Position numbers and translations under genes: made by a program
Shown: in pieces, positions 19,174-56,197 of the stretch
How positions within the stretch are numbered: position 1 is the stretch's first letter
Layout of the letters: each line of letters opens with the position of its first letter
Sequence record: PQ850594.1
Reading direction: 5' to 3' (one strand)
DNA from: Escherichia phage AnnaHegner_Bas87
DNA: 64,000 bases
The notes under the pieces: generated by a model
Seen by the model: the letters and a program-made list of their open reading frames with translations, nothing else
What the model was told of the DNA's origin: nothing
Databases searched by the model: none

Positions 19174-20205
19174 ATGGCTTATGGAATATGGTGTCAACCT
19201 GTAGGACCGGGACCAGCTTCCCCAGCTCCTCTCTTTATTGATAGCGGAAGCACTTTTCCTCAAATAAAAAATTCAATAAGTGGGAGTTTCAACTTTAACG
19301 GGGCTGGTAGATCTTTTCCTATTAGTGGGTGGGATGGGAGTGGTCAAATAGTGATTGTACCAACAGGCTCTCTTTGTTGGCAATGGGAGGTTCCTCCTAA
19401 TTTAGTTCCTGATGTATATTGTGTCAACAATATCTATGTAGAGAATAACACATCATTCAGGGTTACATTAAACCAAAACCCGGGAAGCAACCCTTTGTTT
19501 GACTGTGGTTTCAATGTATATCAAATCTACCCAAGAGCTGATAGGAACTATGGAATAACCTTCTCTAATACAGCTGATTATTTCTCTATCTCAGATGCTG
19601 GGATTGTGGGTCAATGCATCTGGGCTTGGCAAGGAACTATAAACAACGCTCTACAGATACCTGATATTGGTGGTTTCTATATGCCTAATGCTGTAGTTTT
19701 TGCTAACTGGTCTGATGGTGGTGTTGGTTTATCTTATACATCAGGAGATAGGGTGATTCGAGTTTATCAAAACAGGTCTTATAACAATGGCAACACTAAT
19801 GAAGGTGGTTCTGTGTTTGCTAGGGTTGCTGTATTTTGTAATGGTGCTGGGGTTCCTGAACACAACGGCGGTTTAAATATATACTCTCCCGGAACTACTC
19901 AGTGCGTATTCTCTACTTATAGGTCTCCTTTTACAGTAGACACTTTCGTAGGCTCAGCAGGTGGAAATACTGGCTTAGCTTATCCTATGATTCCTCTGTC
20001 TTCTGGAGTTGGAGCTATCAGAGGAAGTGGGAGTGGTTGGTATTATCAACAAATGCGTTCTCATACCATGTCAGGGTCTTCAATAGGAACTGGATATGGT
20101 AGATATATGTTCCAATGGTCTAACAGTTATGACTTAGGTTCTAATGCTGCTGTTAATATCTCCATCCCTGTAATCAACGCTGCTAAGATTTTTGCAGGTT
20201 TATGA
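19174..20205 (+). CDS. hypothetical virion protein
   Basis: 343-aa ORF abutting previous gene. Confidence 0.4.
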   Translation: MAYGIWCQPVGPGPASPAPLFIDSGSTFPQIKNSISGSFNFNGAGRSFPISGWDGSGQIVIVPTGSLCWQWEVPPNLVPDVYCVNNIYVENNTSFRVTLNQNPGSNPLFDCGFNVYQIYPRADRNYGITFSNTADYFSISDAGIVGQCIWAWQGTINNALQIPDIGGFYMPNAVVFANWSDGGVGLSYTSGDRVIRVYQNRSYNNGNTNEGGSVFARVAVFCNGAGVPEHNGGLNIYSPGTTQCVFSTYRSPFTVDTFVGSAGGNTGLAYPMIPLSSGVGAIRGSGSGWYYQQMRSHTMSGSSIGTGYGRYMFQWSNSYDLGSNAAVNISIPVINAAKIFAGL

Positions 20206-22086: not shown

Positions 22087-23055
22087 ATGGCTTTATTTGG
22101 TAGTGGGAGTAGCAAGACTACTTCTAAAATGACAAGACCTGACTACATTCAGTCCTATATTGATCAGTTGGTCAATCAGGTTAATAACACTAGTTCAGGC
22201 GATTATGTGTATCGAGAAAATGTTGGACTTAATCAAAACCAGCAAGAAGCTCTGAACAATCTATCACAATCTGGTGCATTAGGTGCACTTTCTTCTCAGT
22301 ATATGGATGCTGCTCAATCTGGTTTAGGTTATCTAGATAATGCATACTCTGGATATAACAACCTGTCTAACTCTGGTCAAATCACTGGGGAACAGATTGG
22401 TGCTCTTGCAGGCCAGCTCTATGACGACGAGGCTGTGCAAGCAGCTATTGCAGCGAATAATGAACAAACCCAACAGAGTTTGGCTAGGAATGCACTTCCT
22501 CAAATCTCTCAGCAGTTTGCTGGTCAGCAAGGTTCTGGTGCACGTATGGCTAAATCTTTTGCTCAGGGTGATGCTCTGAACCAGATGCAGAACACAGCAA
22601 CTAATATTACTAACAGTGCTTATGACTCCGCTCTAACTCAAGCACAGAACATTCTTTCTGGTAATAGACAAACACAAGCATCTGCTTTGGGTGGTTTATC
22701 TAACATTGGCTCCAATCTTGCTAATCTAGGAAACCAAGCTGGTCAGTTATCACAACAGCAAATGATGAATCAGTGGAATGCAGGACTGCAACAGCAGCAA
22801 CAACAGCAGTCTGATTTGAACAATGCTTATGAGAATGCTCAGAATGCCGCTAATTGGGGTTGGCAGGATATTAACAATCAACTAGGTGCTGCCGGGGTTC
22901 TTAATGGAGCTTTAGGGACAACCACAACTACTAAAACATCTGGTGGTAGTGGAGGCTTCCTAGGTGGTGCTGCTAGCGGTGCTGCTGCTGGCTCAGCTTT
23001 TGGCCCTTGGGGTGCTTTAGCTGGCGGTGTTATCGGTGGCTTAGCTAGCTCTTAA
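22087..23055 (+). CDS. Q/N/G-rich low-complexity virion protein (paralog of 21025-22077)
   Basis: 322-aa ORF; N-terminus MALFGSGSSKTTSK; similar composition and motifs. Confidence 0.5.
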   Translation: MALFGSGSSKTTSKMTRPDYIQSYIDQLVNQVNNTSSGDYVYRENVGLNQNQQEALNNLSQSGALGALSSQYMDAAQSGLGYLDNAYSGYNNLSNSGQITGEQIGALAGQLYDDEAVQAAIAANNEQTQQSLARNALPQISQQFAGQQGSGARMAKSFAQGDALNQMQNTATNITNSAYDSALTQAQNILSGNRQTQASALGGLSNIGSNLANLGNQAGQLSQQQMMNQWNAGLQQQQQQQSDLNNAYENAQNAANWGWQDINNQLGAAGVLNGALGTTTTTKTSGGSGGFLGGAASGAAAGSAFGPWGALAGGVIGGLASS

Positions 23056-24762: not shown

Positions 24763-24771
24763 TAATGTATA
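24763..24771 (+). promoter_or_regulatory. phage promoter-like motif TAATGTATA
   Basis: exact 9-mer 37 nt upstream of ATG 24808; AAGGAG RBS between. Confidence 0.45.
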
Positions 24772-37905: not shown

Positions 37906-39753
37906 TTAGTGAGTGTGATTCCAGTTTAACCCAATCTTACAGTCAGATGCCAGAGGGCATTCCATTTTGAGATACTCACCTGCTTTACGAACACACTCTT
38001 CAGTGAGGGTACGAAGTTTGTTAACATCGTCACGATGTACAGTGAACTGGCCTTCATCATGCATGTCAATAACCTTCGCACAACGAACACCATCACGCTC
38101 AATCCATTTATTAAGGAATAGCATTGCATACTTCATAACAATCGCCCCAGCGCTCTGTAAGAGAGTATTTAAGGCTTTATGAACCATAACCTTTCCAGTT
38201 GCATCTCTTCTCATTGTAATACGACGTCCATCCACACCGTAGATGTATCCACTTTGTGCTTTCTCTGTCATACGTTCAATAAGAATTGCAATACAAGGAT
38301 TCTCTGCTAAGAATCTTGCCCTCATGACAGCTCCTTCATCAGAGCCACCGCCTACGATGCTTCCTAACTTAGCGTCACCAGCTCCGTAGTTGAATGCGTA
38401 GATAAATGTTTTAGCATTATCACGAGTAGGAAGGCCAGCAAGTTTTTGGTTATGTGAGTGAATATCTCCTTCTAAAAGAATATCTCTGTACATAACAGCA
38501 GAAGCTAGACCGCGTTCAGCTTCTCGTTTCTTAGCCGGGTTGTTTTCTCGCTCTGCTTCAGCGAGCATCTCACGACACTCTTTAATAAGGTAGTGAGCTA
38601 GCATCCTCAGCTCAAGACCAGAGCCATCGTAACCTAAGAAGATTTCACGACCAGCAGGAACATAGAACTTATAGGCACCTACAGGTTTGTCTTTCTTGCC
38701 CGGTTTTCCCACTTCGTAGATAGTGTTAGTACCCTTTCGTACGTAACACCCATCAGGGATATGGTTGGTAATGGTGAAAGGATGGTTATGACTATCGTCT
38801 GAGGAATAGTCAGATTGAAAAAGACTGCGGCACTCGTGACCAAACAAACCGCGAGAAGGAATATTAACAACAATGCGATGTTTAAAACGAAATGTCGGAG
38901 TAGCGCAGCTATTAGCTTCGGCGGACAACTTACCATCTTTACGTTCCTTGTCGATAAGCCCGCTAATCAAACCTAGCCTGTGAGCCGCTACAACGCGTCT
39001 CTTAAGCAAACTTCCTACACCCCCTAGCTCACCCCCAAGCCCTTCTTCAAGAGTCTCCTCAAGGTTTGTAGGGGCTGTAGGCCACTTGTTTGATGTAGCC
39101 AAAGCTTTTTTGATTTCATCAAAGGTTACAGGCTTCTTCCTATTAGGGTTAAGACCTAAACCGCTGACATAGGCTTTCATATAATTGACAGTGTGATAAC
39201 GGAAGTGCTTATCCAAAAACCTTCGGATATCAGCATCTATCATCTCTGCTGTCTGTTTCTCTTTAGCGTTACCTCGAATCCAAGCAGAATACCATGCAGA
39301 GTATGTACCATACTTCTTCATAGCTTTACGAATTTCAAAAGTATTCCAAGGTTTCTTAGAATAATTCCACTCTGGAGGTATAAAACCTTCATCCATCAAG
39401 GCTTCTTTAATACGTGCATCTTTTGATGGGTCAAAATCTACATACTCAACGCAAGTAAACGCCCCACCGATATCTTCTCTTTTAAGACCAACCCTATCGC
39501 AATAGAGCTGAGGCCACTTCTGTAAAGCACCTGACTTCTTAAAAGGCTTAGCATAAGTTGAACCATCCACCCGCATTTTAGGGAGGAGAGGAATCAGTTC
39601 TTTATCAATATTGACAATAATCTCTTTGAGAAGGTGAACAAACCACCGAGCGTTTCTTCTGTTGAAGTTGACTCCATGCTTCGCTTGTTTTGAGATTATA
39701 TCAGCGACTGTCATCTCCGTTATGAAAGGTAACTTATCAGGGTTATCCATCAC
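37906..39753 (-). CDS. DNA polymerase, family A (polymerase domain)
   Basis: motif A YDGSGLELRMLAH, motif B RDNAKTFIYAFNYGAG, motif C MHDEGQF. Confidence 0.8.
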   Translation of the reverse strand: MMDNPDKLPFITEMTVADIISKQAKHGVNFNRRNARWFVHLLKEIIVNIDKELIPLLPKMRVDGSTYAKPFKKSGALQKWPQLYCDRVGLKREDIGGAFTCVEYVDFDPSKDARIKEALMDEGFIPPEWNYSKKPWNTFEIRKAMKKYGTYSAWYSAWIRGNAKEKQTAEMIDADIRRFLDKHFRYHTVNYMKAYVSGLGLNPNRKKPVTFDEIKKALATSNKWPTAPTNLEETLEEGLGGELGGVGSLLKRRVVAAHRLGLISGLIDKERKDGKLSAEANSCATPTFRFKHRIVVNIPSRGLFGHECRSLFQSDYSSDDSHNHPFTITNHIPDGCYVRKGTNTIYEVGKPGKKDKPVGAYKFYVPAGREIFLGYDGSGLELRMLAHYLIKECREMLAEAERENNPAKKREAERGLASAVMYRDILLEGDIHSHNQKLAGLPTRDNAKTFIYAFNYGAGDAKLGSIVGGGSDEGAVMRARFLAENPCIAILIERMTEKAQSGYIYGVDGRRITMRRDATGKVMVHKALNTLLQSAGAIVMKYAMLFLNKWIERDGVRCAKVIDMHDEGQFTVHRDDVNKLRTLTEECVRKAGEYLKMECPLASDCKIGLNWNHTH

Positions 39754-41039: not shown

Positions 41040-41052
41040 GTATACATTATGT

Positions 41053-45404: not shown

Positions 45405-45980
45405 TTAGTAAGACACATCACCACTGGAGTGGGACATGTTGCTCTTGACGAAGTAACAGAACTTGCCAAGACCTTCATTAATTTCTTGAAGCATACTCTG
45501 GTCCACTGGATAGGTGCACAAGTCTGAATCAAACTCATCCATCTTCTCAATGATACACATAAGAGTCATGCACATGTCGGAAAGCATACCGTCCATGTCG
45601 AGATCAGCGTTACCTTCTCGGAACCAAGCATGGCCTAAATAATTACTAGCAGTAGCATCCACTTTAACACAATGAAAGCGCATACGCTCTGCTATTCGGT
45701 CGCCTGCCTCACGAGCATAATCTTCTAGTTCATCGAACATACCATGAACACCTTGGAAACCAGCTCCAGAGACGTTCCAGTGGTAGTTCTTTGCTTTGAT
45801 GTGTAGAAGTTCAAGGTTAGCTTGCACACCACACAAGATGTGTTCTAAGCTGTTACCGCTAATCAGTTTATTCATTCCCTCAAGACGAGAGATAGAAGAG
45901 TCAGTAGTAGAGAATGGGTTGCTAGAACCCACTCGTGTTAGTTCTGGTAAGTCGAAGACATTATTATGCATTAGGTGCAT
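45405..45980 (-). CDS. Dps/ferritin-like protein
   Basis: ...KAKNYHWNVSGAGFQGVHGMFDELEDYAREAGDRIAERM... matches Dps ferroxidase region. Confidence 0.6.
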   Translation of the reverse strand: MHLMHNNVFDLPELTRVGSSNPFSTTDSSISRLEGMNKLISGNSLEHILCGVQANLELLHIKAKNYHWNVSGAGFQGVHGMFDELEDYAREAGDRIAERMRFHCVKVDATASNYLGHAWFREGNADLDMDGMLSDMCMTLMCIIEKMDEFDSDLCTYPVDQSMLQEINEGLGKFCYFVKSNMSHSSGDVSY

Positions 45981-46987: not shown

Positions 46988-47521
46988 TTATACACCTTTA
47001 GATGCAACTACCCCATTGCTGCCATTGTAACGACCCTTCACTGCATAGGAATCATCACCAGCGTGAGAGTGTTCAAACATAACCATCTGACCAACACGCA
47101 TCCCAGCACGAACTCGTAAGCTGTGGTTGTGGGTAACGTTATGGAATTCAAAGGTCAGCTTACTGCTGTTAAACCCTGCATCAGCCCAACCAGCATGTAA
47201 GTGGTTCAAACCACAACGAGCCATTGAGGAGCGAAGTACAAACAGACTTGAGATGTTATCTGGAAGGTTAAACTCTTCCATTGAGTGCGCTAAGAAGAAT
47301 TGTCCCGGAGTGATGACAATACCATCTTCAGGGATTTTCACCTCTTTCCACTTGAGGTTTTCTTTAGCATCAATGTCAACAATGCCGTCAGCCTGTTCTT
47401 CAACAAGGATAGTATCACCAATACGGATATCCACACTAGCAGCGTTAACATATTTATGCTCCGCATCTAAAAAGCCATTATCAATAACACTGTGTAATTC
47501 TTGAGAACCTAAAAGACTCAT
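46988..47521 (-). CDS. dCTP deaminase / dUTPase-family enzyme
   Basis: ...NAASVDIRIGDTILV... and downstream motifs typical of dCTP deaminase. Confidence 0.6.
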   Translation of the reverse strand: MSLLGSQELHSVIDNGFLDAEHKYVNAASVDIRIGDTILVEEQADGIVDIDAKENLKWKEVKIPEDGIVITPGQFFLAHSMEEFNLPDNISSLFVLRSSMARCGLNHLHAGWADAGFNSSKLTFEFHNVTHNHSLRVRAGMRVGQMVMFEHSHAGDDSYAVKGRYNGSNGVVASKGV

Positions 47522-48966
47522 GAGTTTCTGTTTCCTTGTACAGATGATGCCAAATTGTTAATCATGTTACGAGCTGTTTCACGAGTCAGCGTAACACCTG
47601 CTAAGTTACTATCAAGTTCACCAACTAATTCACGAGCTGTTGCTCGGAGTTCTGCACCAAGTGTAGTGTTAGAATGAGCCAGACCATTACGACGACCGAC
47701 AGGTCGAGGAGTATTGTTAGCATCATTAGCTAAAGATGCAAAACCAATACGAGCAGCTTCACGAGCGGCTATAGCTGCTACCCGATCTTCCGTAGGGGTT
47801 GGCAAATCACCAACTTCTACACGTTCTATATCACTAGAACGTAGACCCTGAACAACAGAGCTAACTGTTTCCCATGAACGACGGGAGCGCTGCAAATCAC
47901 CCATAGATGGAGAAGAAGCAGGTCGAACAGTTACTCCACCTGTATCATGAGTGACGTGCCATGTACGAGTACCCATTCCAGAAGAACGGGCACTACCAAA
48001 ACTACCAGTGAAAGTATCACGAGGTGACTCTGTAGCAGGTGCTGCGAATCTTGTCTGTTGCCAAGAGTCACGTCTGTCAGTTCCCGGAGTCCAAGGCTGC
48101 GTAATTGCTTCAGCACCTATAGTGGTTAATCCGCTAGACCATTCTGTCTGTAGATTAACTTCCTCGTCCAGATAACTACGACCCCTTTCCTGAGGAATGT
48201 TTAATATAGTTTCCATCATCTTCAGGGTATAATGACGACGCTGATTCTGATATAAATTTACACCAGCCATAGGTCCAACTAAATCACTAATCAGGTGAAC
48301 TTCTGGCTCACCGAAAGCTCCCATTGCAAGGTGCATGTATTCAGTAGAACTGCTATAAACTGCAACAGTTGCTTCAGGCCACTTCTTGTGAACATACTTC
48401 ATTTCACGACTAGATACCACAGGAATGTCACGAGTGTATGACATTGCAAACAAACCTTCGTTTGACACATACAGATTACCAAGAGTCATAAACCCTTGAC
48501 AGATCATAGGAAAGCGACGGCTTAAAGTATCCATATCCAAAGGTAGATTAATCATCATCTGGATTTTAACTTGATCAATCTCAATTTCCAGAATCTCTTG
48601 GAAAGTGAAAAGCGCTTCAGCATAGGTTGTCCCGTTAACAGGCTGAATTAGTCGAGATGTAACCTGAAGCCCCTTACTTTCTGTCCAAGATAAGAAGTTG
48701 TCAAGGAATAGTGCAGCATTACCTACGTTAGCAGGGCTGTTTTCTTGACGAGTGTTCCAACGAAGCCCTCCTTGAACTAGGAAGATATCAACATCATTCG
48801 GAGTTCTATTTTGAAAGAACGTATCACGGATAGCACCACCTGCAATAACAGGATAGATGCCATCAGGGACTACGTTATCTCTGATCAAATTACGAATCAG
48901 GTCAAGCCCTACACTGAGGGCTTCTCCTTCTTGAAGGTTCAATTCAGATAGTGGAATCTTAATCAT
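47518..48966 (-). CDS. Pol-beta-superfamily nucleotidyltransferase (CCA-adding/poly(A) polymerase head-like) with low-complexity C-terminal half
   Basis: ...VIAGGAIRDTFFQNRTPNDVDIFL... (GG..RD...DxD); C-terminal ~230 aa rich in R/S/T/G/A. Confidence 0.55.
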   Translation of the reverse strand: MIKIPLSELNLQEGEALSVGLDLIRNLIRDNVVPDGIYPVIAGGAIRDTFFQNRTPNDVDIFLVQGGLRWNTRQENSPANVGNAALFLDNFLSWTESKGLQVTSRLIQPVNGTTYAEALFTFQEILEIEIDQVKIQMMINLPLDMDTLSRRFPMICQGFMTLGNLYVSNEGLFAMSYTRDIPVVSSREMKYVHKKWPEATVAVYSSSTEYMHLAMGAFGEPEVHLISDLVGPMAGVNLYQNQRRHYTLKMMETILNIPQERGRSYLDEEVNLQTEWSSGLTTIGAEAITQPWTPGTDRRDSWQQTRFAAPATESPRDTFTGSFGSARSSGMGTRTWHVTHDTGGVTVRPASSPSMGDLQRSRRSWETVSSVVQGLRSSDIERVEVGDLPTPTEDRVAAIAAREAARIGFASLANDANNTPRPVGRRNGLAHSNTTLGAELRATARELVGELDSNLAGVTLTRETARNMINNLASSVQGNRNS

Positions 48967-48968
48967 TT

Positions 48969-49517
48969 CTACATTTTCCAGTTGAGAGATGGGGGATTCT
49001 TATAATCAAATCCAGCCATTTGGCAAAGACACATGTAAACCTTAACTGTCAAGTTAACGTCTTGTTCACAATACGTGAACATGTCTTCAGTGAAAGCATC
49101 CCATGCTTCTTCCTGTTCACCATAGTCACCCTTCAGCTCTCCCAGAAATTCGCCCCATTGCTTGAGGCCATGACCGCGAGGTCCGTGTCTAGGGTCGCCT
49201 TTGGGATATTCTGGACTGTCACCAATACGGTCAGGCTTGAGGTATCGACTCAGGCACAGGGTATCAAAGACATTAAAACGAAAAGGTATCACATGAGAGT
49301 AGAATTTAAACAAAGCAGGAAGGTCAAAATCAATAATATTGTGACCTATTACTACATCAGCTTCTTTCAGTTTGTGTAGTGCTTCTTCAATTTGGTGAGG
49401 GCGATACCCCCACCGTTCTCCAGACAGTACATCAAATATCCATATACACCAGACATTCTGAATACCATCATAGAGGTTATCACCTTCAATATCAAACGCA
49501 TACAGTTTCTTTACCAC
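48969..49517 (-). CDS. DEDD-family 3'-5' exonuclease (DnaQ-like)
   Basis: Exo I YAFDIEGD, Exo [16 protein letters not shown], Exo III YCEQDV. Confidence 0.6.
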
Positions 49518-51336: not shown

Positions 51337-51594
51337 TTAATAAAACGATCGTATTTCTTCCCACACGTCATCTTGCAAGTTTCGGAAACCCTGCAAGGTT
51401 TGCTTTGTTCTGTGAATAAATTCTTCAGAGTGCTTATCAGGTGTGAGCATACTGACAAACTTTTCATAGCGATTAATCTTCCACCGCATCTTTAAGTAGT
51501 CAGATTCAAGCTTTCTTAATTTCTGCCTGTCAGTTACTGTCATCCTTCTCACCTGCCAGATATGCTGTCCAGTCACCCGATTCAACCAGAACAT
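51337..51594 (-). CDS. hypothetical protein
   Basis: 85-aa ORF; likely shorter true start. Confidence 0.35.
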   Translation of the reverse strand: MFWLNRVTGQHIWQVRRMTVTDRQKLRKLESDYLKMRWKINRYEKFVSMLTPDKHSEEFIHRTKQTLQGFRNLQDDVWEEIRSFY

Positions 51595-51961
51595 CTTGTT
51601 CTTCGTCGATGTGATAAATCCACGCTTCCACAGTTTCGCCGCTGTCCAATAATACTGGAATCAGCGTACGCTTATAAAAGGTGTATGGGTTATCATTGCC
51701 ACGGTGACCTTCCAGACCGTCATATGGGCCTTCCAGACCAGCTTGGGTTGTTTCAAAGACTTCTACACGAACAGGCTTACCATTGCTGTCATGCTCCAAA
51801 GATACACTTGGGAAGTATGCTGTGCAATACTGATACAGGTTACAGTTGTTTACTGTCCACCCTTCACCAATAGACACACCACCTGCACGAGCATTGATAG
51901 CATGGTTGTGTTGACCTTTTCTCAAGCTTCCGTAAGTTGCAACTAGTACTTTATCAGACAT
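51530..51961 (-). CDS. GGCT/AIG2-like protein (gamma-glutamyl cyclotransferase fold)
   Basis: N-terminal VLVATYGSLRKG motif; 143 aa. Confidence 0.5.
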   Translation of the reverse strand: MSDKVLVATYGSLRKGQHNHAINARAGGVSIGEGWTVNNCNLYQYCTAYFPSVSLEHDSNGKPVRVEVFETTQAGLEGPYDGLEGHRGNDNPYTFYKRTLIPVLLDSGETVEAWIYHIDEEQDVLVESGDWTAYLAGEKDDSN

Positions 51962-52478: not shown

Positions 52479-53714
52479 TTACAGAGTTACTGCTACTTCG
52501 CTACCTTCAACATTGACAGACTCTAACTTGCGAGGGTTATGAATCTGTACCGGATTAACCGGAACGTTCCAACCACTACGGTAGAAGTTACGACCATCAC
52601 AGAACAAAATGACATTGGCAGACATTGCATTCGGTTGCAGGTTGTTATGGACATGACGGATATCTGCAATCCAATAACCACGAGACAAAGTGTAACCAGT
52701 AGGTGCATTACGAATAGTTTGAGTATTCATCTGACCTTCCAGTTGCATCTCTTCAGGAACTACATCTACCGAATCAACTGGCTGTGCTACCTGATCTTCC
52801 AGTGCAAAGTTTTCATCATTAGCGCTTTCGCTGTCATCTACCAACTCACCGTCTCCATCTTCAATCGGAGTCTGGTAAACCACTTTATACTGAGGAGTAT
52901 AGAGAGGGTTCTGAGCTTTAACAAACTCAAGGATGTTATGGCGGTAGGTATCCAGAGTTGTACCAGTCAGGCCCGGTGCTGTATTAACTTCCAGTACCCA
53001 CGCTTCTTGACCTTTGGTGATAATATCAACTGCACCGAAATCCAGACCCATTGATTCAACAGCTTTCACCGCATTGATCAGAGAGGCGTCATTCGGAGCA
53101 TCTGTGAAGGAGCTTGAGTAAACCCAGCCAGTGTGGTGATTACGAATATCTTCACGATAGTTAGGGTCTTCGCGATAACCATTGCGACGAATCTTCTTCT
53201 GAACATAGGTGATTACACCTTTGAACACATGGACACGCCACTCACGACGTGGGCCTTGAATGCCTTTAGTGTACAGTTCAGCTCGACCAAGACCATCACC
53301 CGGTTCTACAACAACAATACCCGAACCAGAGTGACCAGTCAGCTCATGGCGCTCATACACAATATTACCAGTGTTTGACCACTCCTGAGCAGTCTCTTGA
53401 ACATCTGTGTATTCCACAGTTTTAACACCTGCTTGGTCCATCACACTGAAAGCACGACGTTTGTTCGCTGCCATATATAAGGCTGCGGTACGGTTAAGGA
53501 CGGTTGCAGAACCAAAGAATGATTCAGGATAGCGACGGTTCCCGTAGTTAACAACCACATCACCTTCACGAGAACGCCAGCGGCTATTCTCTGAAAGAAG
53601 ACCCATCACGTTAGCATTGATGCGTTCATCACGGATAGTATCACTGATAGCAGATACTAGAGCGTTAACAGAATCAGACGGGCCATACGGAAGAACACGG
53701 ATACGAGTAGTCAT
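52479..53714 (-). CDS. ATP-grasp ligase (RimK-like)
   Basis: ...DFGAVDIITKGQEAWVLEVNTAPGL... ATP-grasp signature; ~130-aa C-terminal extension. Confidence 0.6.
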   Translation of the reverse strand: MTTRIRVLPYGPSDSVNALVSAISDTIRDERINANVMGLLSENSRWRSREGDVVVNYGNRRYPESFFGSATVLNRTAALYMAANKRRAFSVMDQAGVKTVEYTDVQETAQEWSNTGNIVYERHELTGHSGSGIVVVEPGDGLGRAELYTKGIQGPRREWRVHVFKGVITYVQKKIRRNGYREDPNYREDIRNHHTGWVYSSSFTDAPNDASLINAVKAVESMGLDFGAVDIITKGQEAWVLEVNTAPGLTGTTLDTYRHNILEFVKAQNPLYTPQYKVVYQTPIEDGDGELVDDSESANDENFALEDQVAQPVDSVDVVPEEMQLEGQMNTQTIRNAPTGYTLSRGYWIADIRHVHNNLQPNAMSANVILFCDGRNFYRSGWNVPVNPVQIHNPRKLESVNVEGSEVAVTL

Positions 53715-54163: not shown

Positions 54164-56197
54164 TTAGTGTTTACCTTTACAGTAATCTGAATTACAGATC
54201 ACCCTGTTTTCTTTGTTCAGTGAGCAAGTTTCTGCATCACGCCACGGAATTTGTTTATAACAGACTGCACAAAACCCAATTGAAGTCCAGAGGGCTTTTG
54301 TAAACTCAGCTGTTCGTTGTCCATCGTAACTGACAACTGTTTTTCGGAGAGAGGTTGACTTTTCTGGAAATGTCTCCGCTTTCTCAGCGGGTACCTCCTT
54401 TGGGGCATTCTTTGGACCATAAACAGAGATGGCATAAGTATCACCACCACGTTTTTCCAAATACGAATTAGGAACATCTGCAAGTGTGATGTCCCCTGAA
54501 CGTTTTGCTGAGCTGACCATTACAATCATACGGCTAAGCATACGTTCATCAACACGAACAGCTACTTCAGGACGACGTGGGTTGGTTGTGTCTACTGCTT
54601 TAGTCCAAATATAACCTTCAGATAGAGTAACATTCTTTACTTTATCTTTGATTTCTTTGGAGCAGATATAACAAACGTCTTCACCACGAAGTTTACTCAT
54701 TTCGTTGTCAAACTCGAAATCAGTCTTGACTTCACCACAGATAGCACATACACCCAAAGGCACATCTTCTTCCTCTTCAGAGGTTTTAGATAACGCTTCG
54801 AAGCATTCTGGATGCCAGTATGCCTGATAAGCAAACACAGCCTTACGAGCATCTTTCCAGTCAATGTGCTTATCACAACCACCACAGTCACCATGAGAGT
54901 GAGATTCCCAGAACTTACGAGTGACTTCTACACCATTCTTAGTGATGAAGGAGTCCTCTGCATCAAAAGGGATATCATCATCAAAATCAGCAGTAGTGCT
55001 TTGAGGCTCCTTATCTGTAGCATCAACAAACAGCCCTGAAGTTAGTACGAGGCGAATCATACTGTCCACTTCGGAGATACAAGCGATTGTCCCGCGATAT
55101 ACTACCTTTGGGTTTTCAAGAGCCTTAAGATATTCATCTTTGGCTACGTTGTGAACATCCCCTTCGACATACTCTTGGGCTTTATCATCGTAGATGTAAC
55201 CAACCATCTTACCACGATCTGTGTTGTTATAAGCATGGAACTCGTGAGGAATAATATCCACACGACCATCACGACGATAAGGAAGACCACGATCGGCAGC
55301 CAGTTTGTTCTGGTCTTCAATCGCTTTACGACGACGAATGTCTCCGCTTGTCACGCCGGGCTTGTCGTCTTTGTTTCCGTAAATGTCGCTTGTGCTGCTG
55401 CTTGGTTTGTTTGTCTGTTGGTTCTGATAAAGAGAGGAGTTCGAGTAATAGCCGCCCCAGCGACTCGTTACCGTAAAAACCGGAAGCTTGTGCTCCACCT
55501 CTTGAACCAGAGTCATACGACTGTTAGACACATCAAAGATATACTCAGTTCCCACTTTACACTCGAAGTGGTCATTGATACGGTTCTTGTGGGATTTAGA
55601 ACGCTCTAAAATCCACATAAGCATAGCTTCTTCAGAAGCCCCAAACCAATCCAAACCACAGCGGGCTAGGTGGAAAGGACGCTCATCATTACGGATAATG
55701 TGAAGCGTGTTGTCTTTAGCATCATGCCAAATCAAAGTGAATGCACCATCCAGTTTTTGGATAGTCTCTGCTGCTCCAATGGTGTTAATTGAGTGGCAGA
55801 TGTTTTCACTATCAACTTCGAAACGCTTACTGTCAGGAAGGAGATCTTGATCTAACAGGGTTCCATTATGAACCAGAGTAATATCCCCGTGAGTAAATGG
55901 GTGAGCATTTCGAGCATTGACAGCCCCACGAGTGGCATGTCGGCTGTGACCAACAATCCACGAAGGAGGAACTACGTAGTTCGTAAGCCCTTTGGTAATA
56001 TTTGTATATTCTGTCTGGAGCATAAAAGCATAAGAAGGAAGAGCTTCTTTATAAGAGAAGACTTGCTTTTCACCTTTACGCTGACCAAACACACCAGTTG
56101 AGTGCTGTCCACGGAAAACACCAGCATACAGAAGTTGGTTGAAAATGTCCAAATCTGCTGAGGTCATGTTGCCGCCAGCTAATACGATACCACAAAT
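54164..56197 (-). CDS. class-II (Ntn) glutamine amidotransferase domain fused to Cys-rich zinc-ribbon region; probable AUU start directly before catalytic Cys
   Basis: in-frame ...TAG AAA ATT TGT GGT ATC GTA... gives (I)CGIVLAGGNMTSADL...FRGQHSTGVFG matching GAT-II N-termini; AGGTGG 8 nt upstream of ATT; no asparagine-synthetase PP-loop seen. Confidence 0.55.
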   Translation of the reverse strand: MCGIVLAGGNMTSADLDIFNQLLYAGVFRGQHSTGVFGQRKGEKQVFSYKEALPSYAFMLQTEYTNITKGLTNYVVPPSWIVGHSRHATRGAVNARNAHPFTHGDITLVHNGTLLDQDLLPDSKRFEVDSENICHSINTIGAAETIQKLDGAFTLIWHDAKDNTLHIIRNDERPFHLARCGLDWFGASEEAMLMWILERSKSHKNRINDHFECKVGTEYIFDVSNSRMTLVQEVEHKLPVFTVTSRWGGYYSNSSLYQNQQTNKPSSSTSDIYGNKDDKPGVTSGDIRRRKAIEDQNKLAADRGLPYRRDGRVDIIPHEFHAYNNTDRGKMVGYIYDDKAQEYVEGDVHNVAKDEYLKALENPKVVYRGTIACISEVDSMIRLVLTSGLFVDATDKEPQSTTADFDDDIPFDAEDSFITKNGVEVTRKFWESHSHGDCGGCDKHIDWKDARKAVFAYQAYWHPECFEALSKTSEEEEDVPLGVCAICGEVKTDFEFDNEMSKLRGEDVCYICSKEIKDKVKNVTLSEGYIWTKAVDTTNPRRPEVAVRVDERMLSRMIVMVSSAKRSGDITLADVPNSYLEKRGGDTYAISVYGPKNAPKEVPAEKAETFPEKSTSLRKTVVSYDGQRTAEFTKALWTSIGFCAVCYKQIPWRDAETCSLNKENRVICNSDYCKGKH

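Follow-up and report, generated by a model that had tools for sequence, protein, structure and literature searches.

What is a nucleotidyltransferase with a long, compositionally biased tail doing in the replication operon of a podophage? The question is raised by a gene in a 64,000-nucleotide stretch of Escherichia phage AnnaHegner_Bas87 (PQ850594.1; the whole stretch is hereafter the window) that encodes a 482-residue protein. A sequence-only reading of the window described this protein as a CCA-adding-enzyme-like nucleotidyltransferase fused to a low-complexity, basic tail, and suggested tRNA repair and RNA tailing among its possible roles. Our analysis confirms the observation and partly supports the interpretation. 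The gene as such is already known: both RefSeq and the BASEL authors annotate it as 'nucleotidyltransferase', and it has been remarked on in print. What emerges here is that the protein is a divergent, minimal class II variant with an unusual lysine-free, predicted disordered extension, for which we tentatively rank template-independent tailing of RNA 3' ends first, with the tail possibly acting as a substitute tether to RNA or to a partner.

An AlphaFold2 model built from an alignment of 35 sequences, with full-length identities down to 21%, contains a folded domain over residues 1-276, where the block means of the predicted local distance difference test (pLDDT) are mostly 80-92, with lower values in the loops 68-74 and 109-118 and a softer region at about residues 221-240. 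The N-terminal domain of about 250 residues proposed earlier thus stands as a folded unit, with its boundary moved to about residue 276. The modeled core has the alpha-beta fold of the Pol-beta superfamily, and the best 33 matches in a Foldseek search of the PDB are all class II tRNA nucleotidyltransferases. The structural matches include E. coli poly(A) polymerase I (3aql; match value 10.5), the CCA-adding enzyme of B. stearothermophilus (1miv; 9.5), 4wby, described as 'Poly A polymerase; tRNA-processing enzyme' (9.2), and the CCA-adding enzymes of Thermotoga maritima (3h37; 9.0) and human (1ou5; 8.8). The alignments to class II enzymes span about 150-165 residues each, that is, the head only. 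Structural comparison of the model detected no counterparts of the helical neck, body, and tail domains with which class II enzymes bind tRNA or RNA, and beyond residue 206, the core holds only short helices, up to residue 266.

The Pol-beta signature on which the first description was based is indeed present, with GGAIRD at residues 43-48 and NDVDIF at residues 57-62. The hG[GS] loop and the [DE]h[DE]h strand of the superfamily are represented by G43-G44 and D58-V-D60-I, respectively, and GGAIRD-x9-DVD conforms to the class II motif A pattern, GGxVRD-x(8-10)-DxD. Seven residues of this region (G43, G44, R47, D48, D58, D60, and F62) are invariant in the 35 sequences, and motif A is the sole stretch of the protein that aligns directly by sequence to solved CCA enzymes, such as 6ibp. 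The third catalytic carboxylate could be E124, to judge from its position in the Pol-beta fold. Because the motif A residues are invariant, and the acidic residue at position 124, on the strand of the third carboxylate, is nearly so, the enzyme is probably active. The same conservation bears on the idea that the head is catalytically inert and its fold is kept for structure or binding within the replisome, while the tail serves as a hub for interactions. The short conserved helices of the tail are typical of binding motifs, and the gene belongs to a replication operon, but little or no variation is seen at the three catalytic acidic positions and in the GG-x-x-RD loop across members with full-length identities of 21-25%, and the ratio of nonsynonymous to synonymous substitution rates (dN/dS) of the core is 0.095, which makes a purely structural role highly improbable.

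In class II enzymes, motif B contacts the ribose and the triphosphate of the incoming nucleotide. At the corresponding position in this family, the RRD triplet is not conserved; P153 is invariant, and position 152 is either F or M. No conserved EDxxR (motif D) was seen when the alignment of the 35 sequences was read by eye. The family-specific helix includes the pattern x-[DE]-x-x-Y-x-x-x-K (residues 187-195) at a place comparable to that of motif D and, by position alone, might be its counterpart. The protein therefore resembles the catalytic head of a CCA-adding or poly(A) enzyme and lacks several features that define a CCA-adding enzyme: the original label, CCA-adding-enzyme-like, holds for the class II head, as indicated by Foldseek and hhalign, but not for a canonical CCA enzyme, given that neither RRD and EDxxR nor body and tail domains were detected.

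The search with profiles and structures proposed alongside the first description gave a divided answer. Structure comparison points to a class II head, whereas the scores with the Pfam PolyA_pol profile (PF01743), 12.1 bits for the window core and 13.5-21.5 bits for eight relatives, all fall short of the gathering threshold of 23 bits. When searched against the PDB, the family profile matched CCA enzymes over motif A only (E=0.036). With a profile that combined Cca, PcnB, and the head-only PolyA_pol proteins, hhalign aligned residues 35-167 at 98.7% probability (E=2e-16), and these head-only proteins form the bridge from the family to the class II enzymes. Scans of the protein against NCBIfam yielded nothing meaningful, those with PADLOC nothing, and a single-sequence search of the PDB found no match. 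Pfam PF26128.2 is listed in precomputed data for most of the phiEco32-type orthologues; the local hmmscan gave only the sub-threshold PolyA_pol match and did not reproduce PF26128. Taken as a whole, residues 1-276 are a divergent, minimal Pol-beta nucleotidyltransferase of class II (CCA-adding/poly(A) polymerase type).

The head-only PolyA_pol proteins, of about 170-230 residues, are the nearest sequence neighbors outside the family (E of 1e-8 to 1e-3) and also appear among the structural matches in BFVD. Such proteins are widespread in T7-like (Autographiviridae) and other podophages, for example, Providencia PS3, Aeromonas phiAS7, and Pantoea LIMEzero. They are exemplified by the stand-alone head domain 2la3 in the PDB and by Gp22 of fHe-Kpn01, and, compared with the phage protein studied here, lack the N-terminal 35 residues, the helical region 207-276, and the tail. 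Expression of the distant relative Gp22 in E. coli proves toxic (PMC7291057), which would be consistent with action on a host molecule. Apart from this single toxicity report, no characterization of the head-only podophage proteins was found in the literature.

Poly(A) polymerase I (PAP I, the product of PcnB) has EDxxR and the neck, body, and leg domains, and in class II enzymes, the body and tail domains hold the elbow of tRNA. The phage protein is 11% identical to PcnB (PDB 3aql), and differs from PAP I in that it lacks the RRD of motif B, and that EDxxR and the neck, body, and leg domains were not detected in it. From the class II CCA-adding enzymes (1miv, 3h37, 1ou5, and 6ibp), it differs in a similar way: motif B is absent, motif D is not apparent, and a body or tail for the binding of tRNA was not detected. 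These differences bear directly on the proposal, made in the sequence-only reading, that the protein repairs tRNA by rebuilding 3'-CCA ends damaged by host tRNA-targeting defenses. The closest solved structures do include CCA-adding enzymes, and the sequence of motif A is typical of class II tRNA nucleotidyltransferases, but the features that such an activity needs are missing (no RRD, no EDxxR seen, and a structural match confined to the head), and the window contains neither tRNA genes nor any Rfam matches. We accordingly find tRNA repair unlikely.

The tail that follows the core could, in principle, be a separate or frameshifted gene joined to the nucleotidyltransferase by an annotation artefact, a concern already voiced when the gene was first described. 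In favor of an artefact, the GC content is higher in the tail region (0.47-0.50 versus about 0.40), and the related record of Escherichia phage vB-EcoP-XT32, with a 358-residue homologue, annotates the orthologous gene as two coding sequences (CDSs) for hypothetical proteins. However, each of nine genomes carries the gene as one open reading frame (ORF) of 1404-1473 nucleotides, with a length always divisible by three; the genomes differ in its length only through in-frame indels, which cluster at residues 299-345. Averaged over pairs of these genomes, dN/dS is 0.095 in residues 1-285 and rises to 0.31 in residues 286-482; the tail is thus under purifying selection, with a weaker constraint than the core. 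The GC content at third codon positions of the tail is 0.22, compared with 0.60 and 0.61 at the first and second positions, as is typical of sequence that codes in this frame, and this signature also accounts for the local rise in GC. Each of the other five frames of the tail region contains 3-25 stops, and no internal promoter- or terminator-like signals above chance are present on the coding strand of the gene; the PHROG profile of the family matches from end to end.

The two-gene explanation was thus rejected on the open frame, the in-frame indels, dN/dS, third-position GC, and the closed alternative frames, and is virtually excluded; the XT32 annotation probably reflects a frameshift or a sequencing error in that genome. 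Because the frame is kept in nine genomes, the tail evolves at a dN/dS of 0.31, and the other frames are closed, the gene encodes one translated protein of 482 residues. One peptide of the SU10 orthologue, gp74 (predicted mass 50.9 kDa), was detected in a mass-spectrometry survey, and this protein is listed among the 'early gene products' (PMC4281155).

The composition of the tail is indeed biased, with T, R, S, A, and G accounting for 11.2%, 10.8%, 10.3%, 9.9%, and 8.6%, respectively, of residues 251-482. It is not of low complexity, however: the Shannon entropy is 3.35-3.52 bits in the tail and 3.54-4.03 bits in the core, and there are no tandem repeats. No paralogue of the core or the tail was found elsewhere in the window, and an origin of the tail from low-complexity or repeat sequence was rejected on these grounds. 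Neither did the basic character attributed to the tail survive the count of 25 arginines, no lysines, 11 aspartates, and 16 glutamates (27 acidic residues; net charge about -2). The impression of disorder, in contrast, was borne out by prediction. The pLDDT is below 50 at residues 277-434 and 449-482, with low-confidence helices at 355-372, 393-417, 435-455, and 462-478, and residues that promote disorder account for 56% of the tail and 42% of the core. Judged solely by charge and hydropathy, the tail is a borderline case that falls narrowly on the 'folded' side of the Uversky line; hence, the call of disorder is based on the pLDDT and the share of disorder-promoting residues.

The lack of lysine extends to the whole family. 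Beyond core position 270, the proteins of 30 representative lineages contain 0 lysines among 1,665 residues, with 10.3% arginine and about 21% serine plus threonine, compared with a lysine content of 2.1% in the family cores and 5.4% in the ORFs of the window overall. In one lineage, the arginine codons of the tail are mostly AGA, a single transition away from lysine. So strict an exclusion of lysine from the tails may reflect a constraint on chemistry to which ordinary disordered linkers are not subject. Two other ORFs of the window are depleted in lysine as well, namely, 19174-20205 (+), with 343 residues, 0.6% lysine, and a lysine-free run of 305 residues, and 22087-23055 (+), with 322 residues and 1.2% lysine; by position, these appear to be the 'membrane protein' and 'DNA ejection protein' genes of the phage Bas86.

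The abundance of serine and threonine in the tails, together with the lack of lysine, suggests selection on side-chain chemistry and raises another possibility, namely, that the core nucleotidylates protein, modifying serines and threonines of its own tail, for self-priming or autoregulation, or else a host protein. The Pol-beta-fold enzymes GlnE, GlnD, and MntA nucleotidylate proteins and provide the precedent. Nevertheless, all the nearest structural relatives act on the 3'-OH of RNA, and nearly tail-less orthologues exist, so that we regard protein nucleotidylation as very unlikely.

The tails of the three genera of E. coli phages align poorly but share islands of similarity. The island at residues 352-366 resembles APAMRRAQESRR of the phiEco32-type proteins and, among the remoter members, [ST]-M-E-E-V-R; another, G-F-A, lies at residues 406-415; and the C-terminal element is found again, as RTLEEVRIRVNNIAQN or RTMEEVRRNVNEMAHQ, even where the similarity of the cores is weak. 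Such islands are what one expects of a disordered linker with short recognition motifs. The length of the tail in the family ranges from 12 to 213 residues, with the longest in the lineage of the window, and short-tailed members as well as orthologues of 279-290 residues, which are nearly tail-less, keep the synteny. Because several relatives of this size have almost no tail, the conserved unit of function is the core, to which the tail is attached as a variable, rapidly evolving appendage. The question of whether the C-terminal half is conserved in homologues, posed at the outset, hence has a mixed answer: short motifs and the absence of lysine are conserved, but length and alignable sequence are not.

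How widespread is this protein, and how constant is its setting? A word-indexed protein search recovered only relatives with more than 86% identity, and the remoter ones came to light when an alignment served as the query and when a profile was run exhaustively against 1.84 billion protein representatives, among which the family is narrow, with 29 clusters at E<=1e-30. At the DNA level, the gene is 99.9% identical to Bas86_0066 of Escherichia phage OliverMaurmann_Bas86 (PQ850622.1) and 88-93% identical to its counterparts in 21 further records of ECBP2/SU7/EK010-type podophages, some of which are Gordonclarkvirinae of the genus Suseptimavirus. The protein is orthologous to Bas86_0066, phiEco32 gp73, and SU10 gp74, with which it shares the operon position and the lysine-free tail, and matches PHROG 12715 over its full length (residues 1-475 versus profile positions 1-456 of 457; E=6.1e-169). 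Between the genera of the PHROG 12715 orthologues, core identity is about 32-33% over residues 1-283; the tail, of 213 residues here, is about 150-180 residues long in the Kuravirus and Nieuwekanaalvirus orthologues and differs in sequence, too.

In each member with a readable context, the gene order is DnaB-type primase/helicase, polymerase exonuclease subunit, nucleotidyltransferase, and dCTP deaminase, and the exonuclease subunit always adjoins the nucleotidyltransferase in the relatives examined. One contig (L018) carries an HNH homing endonuclease gene inserted between the nucleotidyltransferase and the dCTP deaminase. The thioredoxin and ThyX genes follow in all the contexts read, and a Dps/ferritin-like protein in most. 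This order is kept in contigs of 71-100 kb in which the proteins are 21-25% identical to that of the window over full-length alignments. The gene is therefore a fixed operon member in all the Gordonclarkvirinae-like podophages examined.

We rank RNA tailing first because RNA 3' ends are what all the nearest structural relatives extend, and do so with modest confidence. The core would transfer nucleotides, without a template, to a 3'-OH on a nucleic acid, most likely RNA, much as a poly(A) polymerase does, so that transcripts of the host or the phage, or small RNAs, would be tailed early in infection. The tail would replace the missing RNA-binding domains, with its arginines and aromatic residues tethering RNA or its conserved helices tethering a partner protein. 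Specificity for nucleotide and substrate is unreadable from the sequence.

Several observations weigh against RNA tailing. Motif B (RRD) is absent both in the 35-sequence alignment and in the hhalign comparison, and, therefore, the use of ribonucleotides is not assured. In the hhalign comparison with E. coli Cca and PcnB alone, the alignment is limited to motif A (E=0.0016, probability 16%). As for the tail, it is not basic, its disorder is predicted, and it is dispensable for the function of the core, since nearly tail-less orthologues exist. A literature search found no experiment on any member of the family. Finally, the fixed place of the gene in an operon for replication and deoxynucleotide metabolism points to DNA as much as to RNA.

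A DNA-directed role could take the form of a step in covalent DNA modification that underlies resistance to restriction, or of deoxynucleotide addition to DNA 3' ends. The case for it comes from the synteny with the primase/helicase, the exonuclease subunit, dCTP deaminase, thioredoxin, and ThyX, which is invariant at 21-25% identity, from the coupling to the translation of dCTP deaminase suggested by the ATGA overlap, and from the loss of motif B, which might relax sugar selectivity. Humolli et al. 2025 (BASEL, PMC11990801) noted the locus of dCTP deaminase and nucleotidyltransferase and speculated on covalent DNA modification, because Gordonclarkvirinae strongly resist restriction-modification systems with no known modification pathway. 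Against this, dCTP deaminase and ThyX suffice for the supply of dTTP, and no DNA-binding domain is detectable in the protein. No nucleotidyltransferase with a class II head is known to act in the modification of DNA, and a literature search turned up none. On balance, a role on DNA is unlikely.

More far-reaching versions of these ideas can be formulated: the nucleotidyltransferase, with its putative coupling to dCTP deaminase, might be the missing enzyme of a new pathway for DNA modification or nucleic acid marking, or the lysine-free tail, rich in serine and threonine, might be its own acceptor, making the protein a self-nucleotidylating, protein-primed polymerase. Either is a long shot. If real, a modification or marking pathway would explain the resistance of the Gordonclarkvirinae to restriction-modification systems. 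These are common, broad-host-range phages of E. coli that feature in therapy studies and reportedly resist restriction-modification systems to an unusual degree (PMC11990801). A class II nucleotidyltransferase cut down to its head is a compact test case for substrate choice without the usual RNA-binding domains, and the lysine-free, motif-bearing tail is a clean example of selection on the composition of a disordered region in a phage.

Table 1 Features of the nucleotidyltransferase gene, its product, and its neighbors in the window
Feature	Position	Strand	Remarks
Nucleotidyltransferase CDS	47518..48966	(-)	Complete; ATG start; 482 codons + stop
Folded catalytic core, residues 1-276	48139..48966	(-)	N-terminal strand and helix, class II-like nucleotidyltransferase head, short helical region 207-266
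Motif A, GGAIRD-x9-DVDIF, residues 43-62	48781..48840	(-)	Metal-binding aspartates D58, D60
E124, candidate third catalytic carboxylate	48595..48597	(-)	Nearly invariant acidic column, Asp in most relatives; predicted strand 122-130
Motif B position, residues 150-158, RRFPMICQG	48493..48519	(-)	Opposite KRRDLTINA of E. coli Cca in hhalign
Family-specific conserved helix, residues 185-197, SSREMKYVHKKWP	48376..48414	(-)	From alignment and model; Y191, K195 invariant
C-terminal tail, residues 277-482	47521..48138	(-)	Predicted disordered; Arg/Ser/Thr/Ala/Gly-rich, Lys-free, net charge about 0
Tail motif, residues 316-329, RDTFTGSFGSARSS	47980..48021	(-)	Similar [ST]-F-[EG] / FxSARSS in most long-tailed lineages (by eye, weak alignment)
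Tail motif, residues 352-366, SPSMGDLQRSRRSWE (SPSM-x-DLQRSRR)	47869..47913	(-)	Overlaps low-confidence helix 355-372
C-terminal helix motif, residues 458-475, VTLTRETARNMINNLASS / VTLTRETARNMINNLA	47542..47595	(-)	Resembles RTLEEVRIRVNNIAQN, RTMEEVRRNVNEMAHQ
ATGA overlap, nucleotidyltransferase stop / dCTP deaminase start	47518..47521	(-)	Read from sequence
dCTP deaminase, downstream neighbor	46988..47521	(-)	Pfam DCD E=1.6e-34
3'-5' exonuclease subunit of split family-A DNA polymerase, upstream neighbor	48969..49517	(-)	

The placement of the gene between those for dCTP deaminase and an exonuclease, given in the first description, proved accurate (Table 1). The exonuclease-subunit gene, which is preceded in the window by one for a T7 gp4-like primase/helicase, ends 2 nucleotides before the ATG of the nucleotidyltransferase. 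The family-A DNA polymerase is split, with about 9 kb between the 182-residue exonuclease subunit and a 614-residue ORF at 37906-39750 (-) that matches the annotated DNA polymerase of Bas86 in size and position. Exact copies of TAATGTATA, presumably a middle/late promoter element of phiEco32, occur in the window at 24763 (+), 34691 (-), 34762 (+), and 41041 (-), and the search for exact copies found none directly upstream of the nucleotidyltransferase gene. The copy at 41041 (-) is located downstream of the nucleotidyltransferase block in the direction of transcription, a position that fits the listing of the SU10 orthologue as an early gene product.

Compared with PQ850622.1, the coordinates of the window agree at the first genes and are shifted by +599 bp at the nucleotidyltransferase gene. 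Because of this offset, the window is not an exact copy of that record but either a very close relative of Bas86 with indels elsewhere or a differently assembled copy. In the replication block of Bas86, a phage thioredoxin gene is annotated. The nucleotide-metabolism block of the window includes a Dps/ferritin-like protein at 45405-45980 (-) (Pfam Ferritin, E=7e-8), and a Ferritin-domain gene is present also in two distant relatives (L018 and L020). A conserved cluster upstream of the replication genes contains a GGACT/AIG2-like gamma-glutamyl cyclotransferase at 51530-51961 (-) and ORFs at 52479-53714 (-) and 54164-56167 (-), whose positions correspond to the Bas86 genes for a RimK-like protein ('S6 glutaminyl transferase') and a GlmS-type amidotransferase; the GGACT gene is again found upstream of the nucleotidyltransferase locus in distant relatives.

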